Source: Lytechinus pictus
Lineage: Eukaryota
DNA length: 64,000 bases
NCBI RefSeq assembly: GCF_037042905.1
Contig: NC_087250.1
Coordinates: 22,632,001-22,696,000, forward strand
Direction of reading: 5' to 3'
This document shows, piece after piece, positions 7,993-50,928 of this stretch. Made by a program: the position numbers and the translations under genes. Below the pieces are notes generated by a model. The model was not told where the DNA came from and ran no database searches. It was given only the letters and a program-made list of their open reading frames with translations. Positions within the stretch are counted from its first letter, which is position 1, and the number at the start of each line of letters is the position of its first letter.

Positions 7993-8419
7993 CATGTACT
8001 GTTCAATACAGAATGCATTTGATTTGGGGAATTGCCTCTACGTCCGATGCCATTTCGTTCAGTGACTATGTCGTCTAATGCTTTTTGGTCCATTATTATA
8101 ATTTTGTTTAATAGCCAGTTAGTCTTTTAAGAGCCACTTCGTCCAAAAGCCACTTCGTCTGTTAAAGAGCCATTTTTTTCCAATAGCCACTTTGTCTATT
8201 AAAAGTTTTGAAATTTAAACTGTCGGAAATAAAATATGTACATGTAGGCCTATAAGACAGAATAATATTTTGTAACATTATATCATGCCATGGCCAGGCC
8301 ACTTCTCCATCATGGTACCGTTTTACCTCCAGAAATGGGAAAAAATAAGAAAAGTGCAACAAATCAAGGTCTAGTCATCAGGCCTATGATGGATTTGGAT
8401 AGCTTTAGGCCTGGTGAAA

Positions 8420-8690
8420 AGATGATGGTGTTGATGATGATGGTGTTGATGATGGTGATGGTGGTGATGGTGATGATGGTGATGGTGATAATGATGATGT
8501 AATGATGATGGTGTTGATGATGATGATTAGGATGATGATGGGGTTGTTGATGAGGATGATGATGGTGATGGTGGTGATGATGATGGTGATGGTGGTGATG
8601 ATTATGAGGGCGGTGGTGATGATGATGGTGATGATGGTAATGGTGATGATGAGAATGATGACGATGGTGATGATAATGACGCTGGTGATT
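8420..8690. repeat. (GAT/GGT)n trinucleotide microsatellite
   Basis: Imperfect gatgatggtgatg run that generates spurious Met/Val ORFs. Confidence 0.95.
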
Positions 8691-9054
8691 ATAGCCTACA
8701 TGTACATTGTATACTGTGCATGTACAGTACGTGTACGTGTACTGTAAAGCCTTCTGTACCAGAAGTGATGATCTTGATTAATATAGTAAAAATAATAATG
8801 ATAATAAAAACAAAACAAAAACATAATGAAAATGATAATACATGCATGACAGTGATAAGTATGATAACCATGGTGGTTGGATCAACCCTAGACAATAGAT
8901 ACCATAATGTACATACGTTTCTCACGGAAACAGATTATTTTAAAACATTGTACATTTCGTATGCAGCTACGCGTAGCATTCATGAATGAGCAAAAAATCA
9001 CAATGTCTATGATGGTTATCGATCGTTAGTTCAGCCAGTCACCCGTACATTTAA

Positions 9055-36025: not shown

Positions 36026-36241
36026 GGACTGGACCGAGTGTCGTATGCTACTGCCTCAGATGGCCCACTTTGAGGAGTGGTTCATCATCCTACCCCAAGA
36101 TCAAACCTGGAGGGAGAGCGAGTACATCGATACGGACGAGCTCCGCATCCCTTACGACCTTCTCGAAGGCTACGAAGTCGAGTGTGAGAATTGCTTCCAG
36201 GATCACGTCAATAGGCTCAATGCTGCGAAGAGGAAAGAGAG
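36026..36241 (+). CDS. ARHGAP35: p190 RhoGAP coding exon 5
   Basis: CT-rich acceptor; DWTECRMLLPQMAHFEEWF...RIPYDLL...FQDHVNRLNAAKRKER; donor gtaagt; phase 2-2. Confidence 0.92.
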
Positions 36242-36800
36242 GTAAGTCTTAGGGGGAAATGCATGTTTAGGGGAAACAGAGATGAGTGGGAGGGGGAGCG
36301 GATACATTGATACGGATGAGCTCCACATCCTGTACGACCTCCTGGAAGGCAACGAGATGGAGTGTGAGAATTGCTTCCAAGATCAAGTCAATAGGCTCAA
36401 TGCTGCGAAGAGGAAAGAGAAATGAGTCTTAGGGAGAAATGTGTGTTTGGGGGGAACAGAGATGAGTGCGAGGGGGAGCCGAGCGGATACATTGATACGG
36501 ATGAGCTCCACATCCTGTATGACCTTCTCGAAGGCTACGAAGTGGAGTGTGAGAATTGCTTCCAGGATCACGTCAATAGGCTCAATGCTGCGAAGAGGAA
36601 ACAGAGGTAAGTCTTAGAGGGAAATGCGTGTTTGGGGGAAACAGAGATGAGTCCGAGCGAATACATTGATACGGATGACCTCCACATCATGTATGACCAC
36701 CTGGAAGGCAACGAGATGGAGTGTGAGAATTGCTTCCAAGATCAAGTCAATAGGCTCAATGCTGCGAAGAGGAAAGAGAAATGAGTCTTAGGGGGAAATG
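36110..36800 (+). repeat. Tandem array (4 units, 174-185 bp) of the exon 5 3' half plus donor region
   Basis: YIDTDEL..YDLLEG.E.ECENCFQD.VNRLNAAKRK coding sequence recurs, ending at 36241, 36421, 36606 and 36780. Confidence 0.95.
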
Positions 36801-37082
36801 CGCGTTAAGGGGAAAGAGTGGTATTTGCTAGGGTCAAATGTAAGTTTTTGGGAACATGGACTGAGTTTTAGGGGGAAATTGAGGTGAGTACAAGGGGTAC
36901 ATGTCTGTAAAGGGATAGACTATTTTTCATTCCGCTAAAAGATGACAAGAACATACTTGCCAAAACAATATTGTATGATCTTTTCCGGGATCAAACATAT
37001 GCCCTTGGAAGAAACATGGACATACCACAAAATCTCTACATTGATTCATTGAACATTTTCACCCAATTTCATCTCATTTCAG

Positions 37083-39175: not shown

Positions 39176-39328
39176 ATGGCAGAAGCTATCGGAGATGAGT
39201 CTAGAGCGATACATCATGTTGATAAAGCAACTTGCTTTTGTACATAATCCTACCACAGACAGCTGCTACTATGGAGAGAAGTGTATGGAAAAACTAACCC
39301 AGTGCTGTATAGAACGAACAGTACAAAA
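39176..39328 (+). CDS. ARHGAP35: p190 RhoGAP coding exon 7
   Basis: ttccag|WQKLSEMSLERYIMLIKQLAFVHNPTTDSCYYGEKCME...TVQK|gtgaga; phase 2-2. Confidence 0.92.
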
Positions 39329-39740
39329 GTGAGATTATTTCAACTTTCATTTGAAGCCTCCTTTAGTATAGCTTTAAATAGTAGTTTCATTATTTTAAGA
39401 AGTGTTTGGAAATACTGACTCAATGCTGTATAGAACGAACAGTACAAAAGTGAGATTATTTCAACTTTAATTTGAAGCCTCCTTTAATATAGCTTTAAAT
39501 AGTAGTCTCATTATTTTAAGAAGTGTTTGGAAATACTGACTCAATGCTGTATAGAACGAACAGTACAAAAGTGAGATTATTTCAACTTTTATTTGAAGCC
39601 TCCTTTAATATAGCTTTAAATAGTAGTCTCATTATTTTAAGAAGTGTTTGGAAATACTAACTCAATGTTGTATAGAACGAACAGTACAAAAGTGAGATTA
39701 TTTCAACTTTCATTTGAAGACTCCTTAATATAGCTTTAAA
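39276..39740 (+). repeat. 121-bp tandem repeat x4 containing the exon 7 3' end and donor
   Basis: gtacaaaa|gtgaga donors at 39329, 39450, 39571 and 39692. Confidence 0.95.
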
Positions 39741-40144
39741 TCTAAGTCTCAGGTTTAAAGGGGGAGTGAACTGCGTGTGGTCTCTTATTAACTGTGTGTT
39801 ATAAATACACAGTCTTAAAATATACGTTTTCAGATATCTCCTAATACTACAGAGACTGAATTGACCTATAACTTTATTTGTATAGAGAAACTAATATGAT
39901 TTTAGAGGAAAAGTAATTGTTTTGCTACTTGGTAACATAATTATAAATGTATGGAATAGATGATTAACATGTTATCATTCAAGCGGGTCTATATTACTAG
40001 ACTACACTAGCATTATGGGTCAGGAAACTGGCCAGGTATGAGTAGTTGAGGACTGGAGATGGCGCTATTGATTCGTATCTGCTTTAAGGTCATCTCAAAG
40101 GGACCAGAGATCTTCAACCATGTATATTTTTCTTTTCTTCGCAG

Positions 40145-45246: not shown

Positions 45247-45861
45247 GTATGGTGTCTTTAAAATGCCTCAAGTAAAATTTGAAAATAAAGTTATCATATC
45301 ATGGGCTAAGAAAAATTGAAATTAATATATGGAAATAATAATGGAAAAATTCTACTGTTATAGTAGAACAATACTGTCACTGCCTGGTAATTTGTAAATA
45401 TGTCATCTCCTATGCTGGCCAGGGGTGGCATTTTAATGCTCTTTGTATCTCACCGAAAAGGTGCTACATAAATATGAACTATAATTATTATTGGAACAAC
45501 GTCGCTAAGCACGTTACAGATATATCATTACCCTGATCATCAGGTTTTGGCATGCGCGTAGGCAATTAATGCACTTTTTCCATTCCCTTGGGTGGATAAG
45601 ATGCGTCTGTGACGTCATAATGGAAAGCAGGTATGACCTCGTCGTCAGTGTGATCCTAGGAAATTTTGAAGAATTCAAGCAAAAAATTCTTTCCACTATA
45701 AATTCATTCTGCCTACCTGCTTTATGAAACAGTTACTGCATACATTTTAAAACTTGTGCTTGTTGCACAGTGTAAATACGTACCCTTGAATGTGCTGCAT
45801 TGCCACCACACACTCTTAAATGTGCATTATTTGTTTTATTTTTATTATTTACTTTCTGTAG

Positions 45862-46044
45862 ATTGAACAACTGTCAAATCGTCAATGTGCCTCCAGACAA
45901 CACCAACCTGTGGCAGGGGAAGAAATTCAGCGAATCTCAGATACAGGACGCCCTCAGGTCGGTGGTGGCCGGTCAGAAATACCGCAGCGGAACCCCCAAC
46001 CAGGCGGAGAGTGACCGAGGCGAGAACGGCGATAATGCTTTCAG
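45862..46044 (+). CDS. ARHGAP35: p190 RhoGAP coding exon 11 (end of pG1)
   Basis: LNNCQIVNVPPDN...KKFSESQIQDALRSVV...DNAF; phase 2-2. Confidence 0.9.
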
Positions 46045-46269
46045 GTTTGGACTTTTAGTTATACGCCAGTTTGCTTGTTGTTAAATGAGCTTAATATTTG
46101 GCCTAGTTTTTAACCTCCTACCACTTAATCTCTGATCTTTTATTCACATTCTATGTTCTTCACATTTTTCAGGTGTTCCACAAAAAGTTAATTTTGGCAT
46201 CAGATCTTGTGTAACTGCCAATGAAGTAGACATGGTTGAAGTCCATCTTACTTTTTGTGAAACACCTGA

Positions 46270-47931
46270 GGATCCTTCCTCCTCTCTTTGTGTTTTCTAC
46301 CTTTTTATCTGTGTCTCTCTGTCCCACTCTGTCTCACTTTTTCTCTTTGTCTCTCTCTTTTGCATTCTCTCTGTCTTTTCCCTGTGTTTCTCTGCCCTAT
46401 ATCTCAGTTTCCCTGTCTTTGTCCTTCTCTTTGTTTCTCAGTCTCCCCTGTCTCACTTTTTCCCCCTTTGTCTCTCTGTCTTGCTGTCTTTGGCATTATT
46501 TGTGGCAGTCGTTATTTTCTAATGTCAGGTTTTTCTGTGTACGAGTACATTAATATGTAGCTCATATAAAGTTGACATGAATATATTTTTCTGCAAAAGC
46601 CTGTTTCATGCCTTCATCCTTTTAATTTTTCCGCCCTTTTCATTTGTTCTCATTATAACTTTCTATCATTTACCCATGTCAATGTTGTATATTTTCCACA
46701 TTTACTTGGTATGGTTAACTATTACATGACCGTATATTATCTTAGTCTTAACCATTGCATCTCCCAACTCTTTGCAAAGATAATTTCATTCTGCAGCAAA
46801 TATTTATTTTATTGTATTCTATTTCTTTCTTGCCTGCTGATTCTTGTATGTTTGTACACGACTTGTAATTTCCATTTGACCACTTTTTGCCTTCTGCTCG
46901 TGTTTATTCAATGTTTTGATTTACCAATTCTTCCTGTTATTATCTCTTTCCCTATCTCCTGTGTCACTCTACTCTTCCACTTCCTCTTCTCTTTGCTTTA
47001 CCTCTTGTTATCACTCTTTGTTTATGATGCTCTTCACAATCTCTTTTCTCCCCCTCTTCCACTTCCTTCCTTTATTTCTTTCTTCCCCTCTATGTCTTTA
47101 TTCTCCTTTCTATCGTTTTGCTTTCCCTTCTCTCGCGTTTTTCACTGTGCCCCCCCCCCTTTTTCAATGACTTTCTTCACAATCTCTTCTCATTCTATTT
47201 TTCTCTCTATGACTCTATATCTCTTTATCATACTCTTACCTTCCTCTTGTATTCTCTCATTTTGTCTCTCTTTCCTTTATTTCTTTCTTCCCCTTCCTAT
47301 GTTATTCACTCTTTCCTTACTCCTTTTTGTTTTCCCTACTTATTCTTTGCTGTGCCCCTTTTTTCTATTTGAGTTCGTTCACAATCTCTTCTCATGCTAT
47401 CTCTCTCTCTCTCTCTCTGACTTTATTTTTCTTTGTCTTACTCTCCTATTCCTCTTGTTTTGCTCTCATTCTTTCTCTCTTAGTATCCCCCTCTCTAACT
47501 TGCTTGTCCTTTGTCATATCTCTTGTATTTTCTTCTTGTATTTTCTCTTCATTCTTCCCTCTCAAATTTGCTATCCTTCTCCAATCTCTTTGTCTCACTC
47601 TCCTTCTCTTCTGCTTGTATTCTCTCATTCTTTCTCTCTTAGTACCCCCTCTCTAACTTGCTTCCCCTTTGTCATATCTCTTCTTGTATTTTCTCTTCAT
47701 TCTCCCCTCTCTCAAATTTGCTATCCTTCTCCAATTTCTTTGTCTCACTCTCCATCTCTTCTCCTTGTGTTCTCTCAATCTTTCTCTCTCTGCCTTTCAT
47801 TGCACCTCACCCTCAATCCCTTCCCATATCATGATGTATATGCTTATCACTGCACCATCTGATCATTTGCATGCTTTTCTCATCTGCTACTTGCACACAC
47901 ACACACTCACCTATTTTCCTTCACCTATGGT
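46270..47931. repeat. Long pyrimidine-rich low-complexity tract with a ~159-bp internal duplication (47464-47790)
   Basis: C/T-dominated; the duplicated unit carries ctctctaac. Confidence 0.85.
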
Positions 47932-47933
47932 AG

Positions 47934-48029
47934 GATTGGCATGTGCATAGCGTGTGGTGATCCCTTCTCACCTGAATTAGTACTGCCTTTTCTCAGGACG
48001 CACAACTGCAGCCTCTCTGCTTTAGATAG
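47934..48029 (+). CDS. ARHGAP35: Candidate alternative (duplicated) exon 12a of p190 RhoGAP; may be a pseudoexon
   Basis: tag|G IGMCIACGDPFSPELVLPFLRTHNCSLSALD, paralogous to the exon 12b start with the same phase; 96 nt if the weak donor AG|gtacac is used. Confidence 0.5.
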
Positions 48030-48994
48030 GTACACCACTCTTACTCATTCATGCCACCTTTTCATTTTGCACACTACCTTATGGTATCCAACAGAATTGA
48101 GCACACTCCTTATTACTGTAACTCTTCACTCAATGATTTTATAGAATTCAAACAGTATGTGAAAATATTTAAAGATGATACACCTTTATGACAGGATACT
48201 TCATATTTTATGACTATGAAGCTTTTGTTTCAAATACAGGTGTATACAAAGCTTAACAACATATCCTTGAGGGATGTACTCACTTCTGTTGGATACTATA
48301 CTGCACATTAAACCTTGCTAAATACCTTATATTGCTATCTTGTATTACTATTCCTATACATTACTTCAATCACATTTATTTTTGGATTGTTTTCAAATAT
48401 ATGATGTTTGGCTTCTAATCATTTTTCCATATTCCATAAGACTAGTATTTTTTTGGTAAATTTCATTTACTTTGAGAACTCTATCATGTGTAGATAAAAT
48501 TCTTCATACATAATATTTTGCCATGTTTAAGTTTTTATCAAGTTGTATAAGATGTATTTTTTAGTAGAAAAATCAAAGATAGTGCAAATAAAAACACTTG
48601 ATTTTTTTCTGATTGTAATGCTGACCTATAAATGTAGCATTTCCTATGGGTTGGTGTCCTCTCTCTAGTGTTGTTATATATGTATAATGTAGAAAGTAGC
48701 AACGTATGTTATTGGCAAGATAAAGAGTGTATAAAATAGGGAAAAGACCTTGATAGAAAACAAATGTTTCTTGACAATTTCATTTTCCAAGGCAGAGGGA
48801 ATACTTAAATACATAAAAAAAACCTTTGTTGAAAAGTATGCGTAGAATTTTGATATGTTGGTATAAAGCAGGTCTGGTCTAAAACGACATTCCTGATTTG
48901 ACCTCATTTTGACCTCATTTGCATAACTCCTCCCCCAATCCACCACCACCACCACCAATATCACCAACACGTTCACCCTTCTCTACCCCATCAG

Positions 48995-49252
48995 GATCGG
49001 CCTATGCATGACTTGCGGTGACCCCTTCCAGCCGGACCTCGTCTTGTCGCCGATCACGAGCCACAACTTCATGGCCACGCCCAACGAGAAGAACTGCATC
49101 ACGAGCGACTTGTTCCTCATCGATACCAAGTGCCGGGTGGACTTTGAGATCTCTTCGTATCATCTCAGTGAGAGCCTACGGGACCAGCGGGTTCACCATG
49201 GCTACATCCTCGTCTATGCAGCTCAACGGAAGGCATCACTGGAGATGCTAAG
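48995..49252 (+). CDS. ARHGAP35: p190 RhoGAP coding exon 12b (pG2)
   Basis: IGLCMTCGDPFQPDLVL...HHGYILVYAAQRKASLEML|gtatgt; phase 2-2. Confidence 0.94.
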
Positions 49253-49829
49253 GTATGTTGAAATACAGTCAACTCTTAGGAGCGTTTCACAAAAGGACTT
49301 GTCGGACATTTCATTTGACAAGTCCATTTTATCCAGCAGTTTCCTTTGTAACCATGCTTCTCAGGCAATCAAAACCAAGGAAAGAAGTCAGATCTGACAT
49401 CTTGTTGGACAGACATTTTGATGAAGGGTTCCCTGATATGTGTTTCATAAAGCTATTCATGATATTACCAAGAACTTTTGGAAGGACTGGAACGTGTTCT
49501 TAGGTGATAATTCAGTTATATATGGATTATCGTGTCGCGTAAGAATGGGTCACAAGTCGTGCGTTTAGTCTTTCATAACTTACGAACAGCTTATGAAAAG
49601 GCCTCTATGTGTGTATAGAAGGTCTAACTTGCGTTTTCCCTCTTCCTGTATAATATTCTTACCTTCAAGCTACAAGAAGTTACAGGGTCACACAAGTATT
49701 AAGTACCCTGAGCTGCTTCCGGGAATTTTTGGTCATTGTCAGTTGTGAGAATTACTACTTCTTCTGTCATACAAATACCTGTACAAGAATGAATAACTAC
49801 AACATGATGATTTTCTTGTCTTATTTCAG

Positions 49830-49990
49830 GTGGTTCATGAAGTTAGTTGAGCCTATACCGACCCTAGTGGTGGCTGTGTGTGAAGACATCAACTCGGCTG
49901 CGGACGGCATAGCGGAGGGCCAACGTCTTGTGGACGGGACAGCCACTGCAAAACTAGTCACAGCCAATTGCTCATCGTTCAGAGAACAAA
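49830..49990 (+). CDS. ARHGAP35: p190 RhoGAP coding exon 13 (pG2)
   Basis: ttcag|WFMKLVEPIPTLVVAV...AEGQRLVD...SFREQ|gtatgt; phase 2-1. Confidence 0.9.
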
Positions 49991-50928
49991 GTATGTATTC
50001 ATTGTGGTGACCTGATGGGAATTTATTCCTTCAATTACAGTGTGTGTATCAGTGGTGATGCGATATTTGCTCTCGCGATAATTGCTCCGGGTTTAATTTC
50101 GTACCTCCCTCAATGGCTAAGCTTTATATTAAGGAGCCCTAGACTTTGTCTCTAGACTTTGTCTATAGACTTTGTCTACCATTTTCAGATGTGTTGCAGT
50201 TTAATTTCACTCTCACAAGTATAAGATAATTATTTCTCCAAATGTAAAAAGGCAATTGTTTTTACTTTAAATCTAAGGATGTATTTGGTGGATTGCTTGG
50301 AAGTGAAACAAAATAATTTTGTTAAGCAGAAAAATAATTTTGTTTAACAGTAATTCCTGAATATGGAGTGATTGATACATGTAGATCTAGGAAAAAACCT
50401 GCAGCTGAACCGACTCCATCTGCTGGTATGTCTTTTCACCGAAGCCAAAGAGTGACCAGAATTGAACTTAAACTGTATCATACCATTACAATGAGGACAA
50501 AGCTTGATGAGGCTCGTTTAACTGAAGATATATTTATATGATTCAGTACATTAGCGAGGTGACACAACATTTGCTTCAGCGACAATTGCTCTGGGCTTAC
50601 TTTCGTCTAATGTGTAGGATTAGGGTTTTAATGAGGTTTGAGGATAGGTTTAGGTTTAGGGTAGGGTGTAGTGTTAAACCCAGGGTTGAAGTTGGTCATT
50701 CGATTAGTGTGTGGAATTTACAGCAGAGCAATTATCGGCGGAGCTAATGTCTTGGAACCGTAACAGCTGCTAGGCAAAAGCCAGTGAGGGTAATTATGTT
50801 GCATCGCGATAATAATGATAATATTCCAACGTCATCCAGCTTTTCATTGTTGTTGATTTGAAAAGTTGAAGGAAGAGTCTCTCTCGTAGCGAATGTGAGG
50901 AGGATGTTTAAAATGTGCCTTAGGAGAG

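Follow-up and report, generated by a model that had tools for sequence, protein, structure and literature searches.

In the Lytechinus pictus p190RhoGAP gene, a partial duplicate of the pG2 exon in the preceding intron is probably a relic pseudoexon

Introduction

Does the p190RhoGAP gene of the sea urchin Lytechinus pictus encode one version of its pG2 pseudoGTPase domain or two? The window analysed here, a 64-kb stretch of DNA from the 812-Mb L. pictus assembly that also served as the genome searched (contig C6, positions 22632001–22696000), is this gene (ARHGAP35/5-like), and the exon that begins at the first strand of pG2 is its exon 12b (48995–49252, + strand; all coordinates are those of the window). 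A first-pass annotation, made from the letters alone, had noticed in the intron ahead of 12b a second stretch, here called 12a, that reads like the beginning of the same exon, and had proposed 12a and 12b as a mutually exclusive pair yielding alternative pG2 domains; a short live exon, an alternative last exon that removes the GTPase-activating protein (GAP) domain and a decayed pseudoexon were its fall-back options. Tandem exon duplication is a known origin of mutually exclusive exon pairs. Here we show that exon 11 is joined directly to exon 12b in the RNA and proteins inspected, and because of this direct joint we read 12a as a pseudoexon rather than as one half of an exclusive pair.

In rat p190A, pG2 comprises residues 766–958 and its G motifs are degraded (Stiegler and Boggon 2017, PMC5593906); the words ‘splic’ and ‘isoform’ are absent from that paper's text. 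The literature searched held nothing in print on mutually exclusive exons in ARHGAP35 or on exon duplication in p190RhoGAP.

Results

Three rRNA-depleted L. pictus RNA-seq runs, ~6% of each of which was aligned to positions 45700–50100, covered exons 11, 12b and 13 at a depth of 8–32, with the read orientation expected for an mRNA of the + strand. All 36 reads that leave exon 11 (45861–46044, +; the end of pG1 and the linker) cross from 46044 to 48995 and thereby enter exon 12b (11, 18 and 7 reads in the three runs), and 31 reads (10, 20 and 1) connect 49252 with 49830, the first position of exon 13 (49830–49990, +). No other joint was seen in this region, and none of the 36 exon-11 junction reads enters 12a; the reads into 47934 by which the first-pass annotation had suggested that its proposal be checked are therefore missing from these samples, where the count bounds the inclusion of 12a only to below ~8%. 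RNA depth is zero in all 19 bins from 46141 to 48933 in all three runs, an interval that includes 12a and its surroundings (47905–48345), and because of this zero depth the proposed alternative last exon without the GAP domain is left without read support. Contigs of the RNA set X1 touch only CT-rich or repeat parts of the region, at 90–95% identity, and are uninformative on 12a.

The annotated proteins tell the same story. A search with 12b gave 20 proteins, and five of their clusters contributed another 29; of these 49 proteins, 46 cover the region (16 from L. pictus, including isoforms X1–X15, 12 from L. variegatus, 15 from Strongylocentrotus purpuratus and 3 from Diadema). All 46 pass straight from the end of exon 11 into 12b and have the motif CGDPF once, while six 5-mers specific to 12a occur in none of the 49. 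A search of protein databases with the 69-residue frame of 12a returned 29 candidates among longer proteins, none at E ≤ 10, and one candidate of similar length that was not a match; a degenerate 12a pattern gave 0 matches in a metagenome scan.

The exon structure against which 12a has to be judged is well defined. The 86-residue translation of 12b is 100% identical to isoforms of the L. pictus rho GTPase-activating protein 35/5-like (p190RhoGAP) and shows 99%, 86% and 67% identity to its counterparts in L. variegatus, S. purpuratus and Diadema setosum, respectively; it corresponds to positions 229–315 of the Pfam profile PF19518 (RhoGAP_pG1_pG2; p190RhoGAP pG1 and pG2 domains) with 75.1 bits. 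RNA depth over this constitutive exon is 8–21, and both of its flanking junctions are seen. When the isoform X1 protein was mapped onto the window, 11 junctions were resolved as exact GT..AG, including 46044>48995 and 49252>49830, and since this mapping and the protein matches of the pG2 exon agree, the exon numbering and boundaries of the first-pass annotation are sound. At exon 11, the donor 46044|46045 is the one joined to 48995 in mRNA, and a loose read end at 45860 agrees with an upstream exon. A search of PDB sequences with 12b did not find a p190 structure. Within the 258 nucleotides (nt) of exon 12b, the RNA-seq reads carry seven variable positions (49044, 49049, 49056, 49118, 49169, 49217 and 49241), which indicates high polymorphism of the sequenced animals relative to the assembly.

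The stretch 12a (47934–48029, +) follows an AG at 47932–47933 that has the same phase as the acceptor of 12b and lies 1,061 nt from it, as had been described for a second acceptor ~1.06 kb upstream. Its residues IGMCIACGDPFSPELVLPFLRTHN align without gaps with IGLCMTCGDPFQPDLVLSPITSHN of 12b at 14/24 identity, and half of the shared residues (7 of 14) are encoded by different synonymous codons in the two stretches; recomputation gave the same figures as those first reported. At the nucleotide level 47 of 73 positions are identical, and the first, second and third codon positions agree in 16, 20 and 10 of 24 cases. The next best 24-mers in the six frames of the window reach 8/24, and the best matches in 30 block-shuffled windows reach 7–10/24, which sets the chance maximum at 10/24. 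Searched in six frames with the 86 residues of the exon, the whole genome yielded only 12b itself, 12a as the sole other significant match (E 0.0015) and one weak match that contains a stop (E 0.21). PF19518 aligns with residues 1–35 of 12a over profile positions 228–263 (20.7 bits, E 1.5e-4; below the curated cut-off of 27 bits), so that 12a and 12b begin at the same point of the profile (228 versus 229). The local protein alignment scores of the 12a frame against the L. pictus, S. purpuratus and Diadema exons are 92, 107 and 87, compared with 21–27 for the other frames. Codon 25 is Cys in 12a, as in S. purpuratus and Diadema, and Phe in the 12b of both Lytechinus species. 12a is a genuine duplicate, made within the lineage, of the 5′ part of the pG2 exon.

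Homology is clear over codons 1–24 (47935–48006) and plausible to codon 32, where the alignment of the ortholog profile to 12a (residues 1–32) stops. Because the profile alignment ends there and the downstream alignments are noise, at most 32 of the 86 exon codons have a counterpart in 12a (24–32 homologous). In the rest of the intron between the repeat described below and 12b (48301–48994, +), no remnant of the remaining ~54 exon codons is detectable, and three-frame alignments downstream of the repeat against residues 41–86 of 12b give best scores of 21–28, which is noise level. When the repeat is excised in silico, the 12a frame closes after 51–56 codons, with no similarity to the exon in the added part (scores 10–12). 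On the 5′ side, the intron sequences upstream of the 12a and 12b acceptors are no more similar than shuffles (p 0.27). An extension of the homology to codons 33–47 (SCHLFILHT in 12a against SCHMFLVDT in Diadema, with a gap of 2–3 codons) was considered and is unproven; in this block the second codon positions are identical to those of L. pictus 12b in 9 of 9 cases, the DNA local alignment over the extension is no better than shuffles (p 0.38), and 22–30% of 4,000 random intronic tails lift the profile score as much, which is why the block was left out of the homology.

Right after 12a lies a dispersed, 221-bp repeat (48080–48300) that resembles a miniature inverted-repeat transposable element (MITE). 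It is bounded by 31-nt terminal inverted repeats (48080–48110 and 48270–48300) that are 84% complementary; TAT adjoins both ends, and the exact element boundaries are uncertain. Partial copies, matching both arms in both orientations, occur on at least five other contigs (C2, C3, C5, C8 and C15), a lower bound given that six candidates were scored. In the family alignment of the window element and five copies (A1), the ends and an internal stretch that encodes YFIFYDYEAF are conserved.

Three features that had been read as parts of the duplicated exon fall inside this repeat. The stop at which the unspliced 12a frame ends is present at 48142–48144, as had been described, and is repeat sequence. 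The second block that had been matched to the end of 12b exists as well, with GYFIFYDYEAFVS beginning at 48194 (48194–48232) and CAG|GT following at 48239|48240; the claimed correspondence in spacing did not hold, since the block lies 259 nt from the exon start compared with 204 nt in 12b, and only 4 of 13 residues are identical to the end of 12b. The BLOSUM score of GYFIFYDYEAFVS (19) is unusual, being reached by 1 of 13,249 stop-free intronic 13-mers, and its four identities are reached by 43 of 13,249. Because other genomic copies of the repeat carry the same internal stretch, the resemblance is coincidental rather than exon-derived.

We scored splice sites with a crude position weight matrix (PWM) built from the 11 confirmed junctions of the p190RhoGAP gene, with true-site ranges obtained by leave-one-out. 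The acceptor at 47934 scores 10.8, within the range of true acceptors (4.5–15.0), and ranks 2 of 68 intronic AGs. It is preceded by ~1.8 kb of CT-rich low-complexity intron (46136–47930, +; GC skew −0.44 and AT skew −0.49 over 46001–48000, with stop-free frames of up to 428 codons), which provides a long pyrimidine-rich run. The idea that this acceptor might be a recursive splice site was rejected, as no GT follows it. The GT at 48030 (TAG|GTACACC; 48030–48031, +) closes a unit of 96 nt, and in position and length the 96-nt exon of the first-pass annotation is thus borne out, but this site scores −0.8 against 3.4–10.5 for the 11 true donors, ranks 42 of 142 intronic GTs and has no junction reads. 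A GT at 48084 (ATG|GTATCCA) behaves alike (−0.9, rank 43). Judged by these scores, the GT at 48030 is not a credible donor, being no better than a random intronic GT. The best of the 142 is the donor-like site 48239|48240 inside the MITE-like repeat (7.2), which would close a hypothetical exon of 306 nt (47934–48239) with the in-frame stop inside it. The acceptors of 12a and 12b share their phase, the 96-nt and 258-nt units both keep the frame, and each of the three lengths (96, 258 and 306 nt) is divisible by three.

To place 12a in time, we turned to phylogenetic and substitution analyses. In a tree of 50 exon-equivalent segments, 12a falls inside the echinoid exon clade with a support of 98/97, on a protein end branch of 1.23 compared with 0–0.15 for the four 12b sequences. 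Approximately unbiased tests rejected none of a Lytechinus-specific (p 0.31), a camarodont (p 0.40) and a pre-echinoid-crown origin (p 0.36), and a residue-by-residue polarisation with Patiria, Anneissia and Ptychodera, tried as a means of dating the copy, was discarded as too noisy. Pairwise comparison of 12a and 12b (NG86) gave a non-synonymous divergence (dN) of 0.31, a synonymous divergence (dS) of 2.35 and a dN/dS of 0.13. Third-position G+C is 12/24 in 12a versus 21/24 in 12b, while first and second positions are still identical at 36 of 48.

The replacements themselves fit the protein family. Against a profile of 47 non-echinoid orthologs, 12a scores 24.1 bits and 12b 28.0 bits; versions of 12b evolved neutrally to the same number of replacements (ten) reach 8.6 ± 5.0 bits, and the value of 12a is reached by 7 of 5,000 AT-biased and 2 of 5,000 uniform simulations. 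Of 5,000 neutral simulations, 44 attain the BLOSUM score of 12a (88), and C4 together with CGDPF is kept in 1.7%. When 73 orthologs or fragments from other animals were compared with the first 25 residues, 23 of them matched 12a with a higher score than 12b (for example hagfish ARHGAP5, 95 versus 79). This substitution pattern suggests something other than a young or purely neutral copy. The duplication is real and not recent, in line with the earlier proposal of an old exon duplication shaped at the protein level. Read from these 24 codons, 12a was probably translated during part of its history, at an even chance or a little better. A search for the exon elsewhere turned up P0072, whose multi-stretch match is that of an unrelated EF-hand repeat protein, and P0085, in which a later stretch of the region is repeated five times and which may be an assembly artefact.

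Partial exon duplications are found at further places in the same gene. At 36109–36815, a tandem array of a 180-nt unit (3.9 copies, 85% matches) contains the 3′ part of exon 5 (…YIDTDEL…NAAKRKER) with its donor and the start of the intron; the extra copies each have an open frame of 57–71 codons, and all 16 L. pictus proteins use the first copy only. A second array at 39277–39741 (121-nt unit, 3.9 copies, 95% matches) contains the 3′ end of exon 7 with its donor and yields three extra 21-residue look-alikes at 39388–39450, 39509–39571 and 39630–39692. In the intron after exon 13, a 23-residue stretch at 50353–50421 matches residues 1175–1195 of isoform X1 at 87%, out of order; it may be another displaced exon fragment, and the true exon must lie past the window. 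The L. pictus p190RhoGAP gene thus repeatedly duplicates pieces of its exons within its own introns, at three sites in 64 kb with 12a included, and because partial duplications that mRNA does not use are common in it, one further relic such as 12a is unsurprising.

Two observations concern other parts of the window. Very many reads and contigs, with loose ends to either side, collect on a 33-nt stretch of intron 12 (49279–49311), where the word depth in RNA run X1 is ~2,000; the stretch presumably belongs to an abundant repeat or small RNA-like sequence located elsewhere in the genome. At 8364–8990, microsatellite-like sequence contains long open frames, of up to 152 codons and rich in His, Asp or Met, on both strands, which are probably simple repeats and not genes.

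Discussion

We consider it probable that 12a is a relic pseudoexon, left by a partial tandem exon duplication and skipped in mRNA. In the sequence of events that we envisage, a tandem duplication placed a copy of the acceptor and of the first part of the pG2 exon in the preceding intron, where 12a would once have been translated under protein-level selection, as the saturated silent sites, the drop in G+C and the profile-fitting replacements suggest, and would then have lost its 3′ part or its use. What remains is a good same-phase acceptor and 24–32 homologous codons, with neither a credible donor nor the other ~54 codons; the MITE-like repeat that follows supplies the stop, the ‘GYFIFY’ look-alike and the cag|gt that were mistaken for the 3′ end of an exon, and in the RNA available the spliceosome passes over the whole from exon 11 to 12b. 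As in a pseudoexon, 12a is homologous to a neighbouring exon on the same strand and absent from mRNA, both in the three libraries and in public gene models, and it has disabling lesions, namely the lack of a credible donor, the MITE insertion at 48080–48300 and a frame that closes at 51–56 codons even when the MITE is disregarded. Among the three fall-back options of the first-pass annotation, the decayed pseudoexon fits best.

Several points weigh against a relic. The RNA is thin (three libraries from one study, of unknown tissue, each read at ~6%), and an exon that is rare, restricted to a stage or tissue, or degraded by nonsense-mediated decay (NMD) would be missed. A still-used exon would also show the strong acceptor that 12a has kept and the non-neutral pattern of its dN/dS and profile score. 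The PWM is built on only 11 junctions; the selection tests rest on 24 codons with a saturated dS, and their signal is uneven, a permutation of which of the first 17 columns changed giving p 0.16.

One alternative, which we hold to be unlikely, is that 12a is a live cassette, rare or confined to a tissue or stage. As a 96-nt in-frame exon (47934–48029), it would lengthen the protein by 32 residues, a repetition of the first strand and the degenerate P-loop region of pG2, or would replace a skipped 12b; as a 306-nt poison exon (47934–48239), it would combine the MITE-borne donor with the stop at 48142–48144 and lead to NMD or to a protein without the GAP domain. An acceptor in the true-site range behind a long pyrimidine-rich tract, three unit lengths divisible by three, the best of all 142 GTs at 48239, a substitution pattern that suggests protein-level constraint and RNA that bounds inclusion only below ~8% would all suit such an exon, yet depth over 47905–48345 is zero in three runs, no junction read enters it, none of the 46 annotated proteins from four species contains it and its donor at 48030 looks like a random GT. 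A 32-residue piece, moreover, cannot stand in for 86 residues of a folded domain, and duplication of the first strand in tandem is without precedent among the inspected orthologs, with P0085, the possible assembly artefact, as the sole exception. We would give little credence to the stronger form of this idea, in which 12a is a functional conditional exon of echinoid p190RhoGAP, kept by protein-level selection since before the Cys25-to-Phe change in the 12b of Lytechinus and used in cell types or stages that were not sampled. If true, splicing would rewire the first strand and degenerate P-loop of pG2, or a stop-containing cassette with a MITE donor would switch off the GAP-bearing isoform.

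A further alternative, which is quite unlikely, is that 12a was never functional, the acceptor and ~75–100 nt having been copied and left to neutral drift ever since. Its coding-like look would then arise because silent changes in 12b inflate the third-position differences and because only conserved-looking copies are noticed. That homology ends within ~100 nt with nothing detectable further, that the gene holds other unused partial exon duplications, that the 12a branch is very long, that the column permutation is not significant and that G+C at third positions has moved away from 21/24 to 12/24, closer to the composition of the intron, is what this alternative would lead one to expect. What speaks against it is that so few neutral simulations reach the family-profile score of 12a or keep C4 and CGDPF, that dN/dS is 0.13 where, by our own reckoning, ~0.5 would be expected with one neutral branch, and that, if silent sites are saturated, first and second positions evolving neutrally would have fallen far below the 36/48 identity seen. 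The original proposal of a working mutually exclusive pair, which would provide two versions of pG2, is in our view very improbable. Tandem position, the same strand, the same acceptor phase and similarity at the protein level are indeed observed, but the anatomy contradicts it: at most 32 homologous codons face 86, the apparent 3′ end is a MITE, the donor at 48030 is not credible, and similar length, a functional donor and use in transcripts were all looked for and not found, with 0 of 36 reads and 0 of 46 proteins from the four species containing 12a.

The relic nonetheless has wider interest. For annotation and for scans of exon duplication it is a caution that a translated look-alike behind an acceptor of perfect phase may be something other than an alternative exon; some of what looked like exon here was a transposon. 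If the hint of past coding selection holds in other urchins, 12a would become a dated case in which an alternative exon of a pseudoGTPase domain was born and died, and would also be the first suggestion that splicing ever varied pG2.

Splice sites borne by MITEs or short interspersed nuclear elements can be exonised, giving rise to transposon-derived cryptic or poison exons. The 306-nt cassette resembles these in that a good acceptor is followed by an in-frame stop and a MITE donor (48239|48240), and differs from them in that it has no supporting reads and that its acceptor derives from a duplicated exon, not from the transposon. Compared with the pG2 domain as delimited in PMC5593906, 12a covers ~35 residues, scores below the PF19518 cut-off and cannot form the domain alone. 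Mutually exclusive pairs that arose by tandem duplication, such as exons 5a and 5b of the sodium-channel SCN-alpha genes (PMC12772994), likewise consist of homologous copies in adjacent introns, on the same strand and with the same acceptor phase, that are more similar at the protein level than at silent sites; compared with these, 12a differs in its unequal length (at most 32 versus 86 codons), its lack of a credible donor and of a transcript, and in that a swap would cost a folded domain over half of what the exon contributes to it. There is also a likeness to unannotated or decayed exon copies from intragenic tandem duplication: 12a, too, is intronic and exon-derived, can be recognised once translated, is missing from both gene models and mRNA, is truncated and has suffered later insertions, and it departs from them in keeping a strong acceptor and a substitution pattern suggestive of past coding, which is untypical of a copy dead on arrival.

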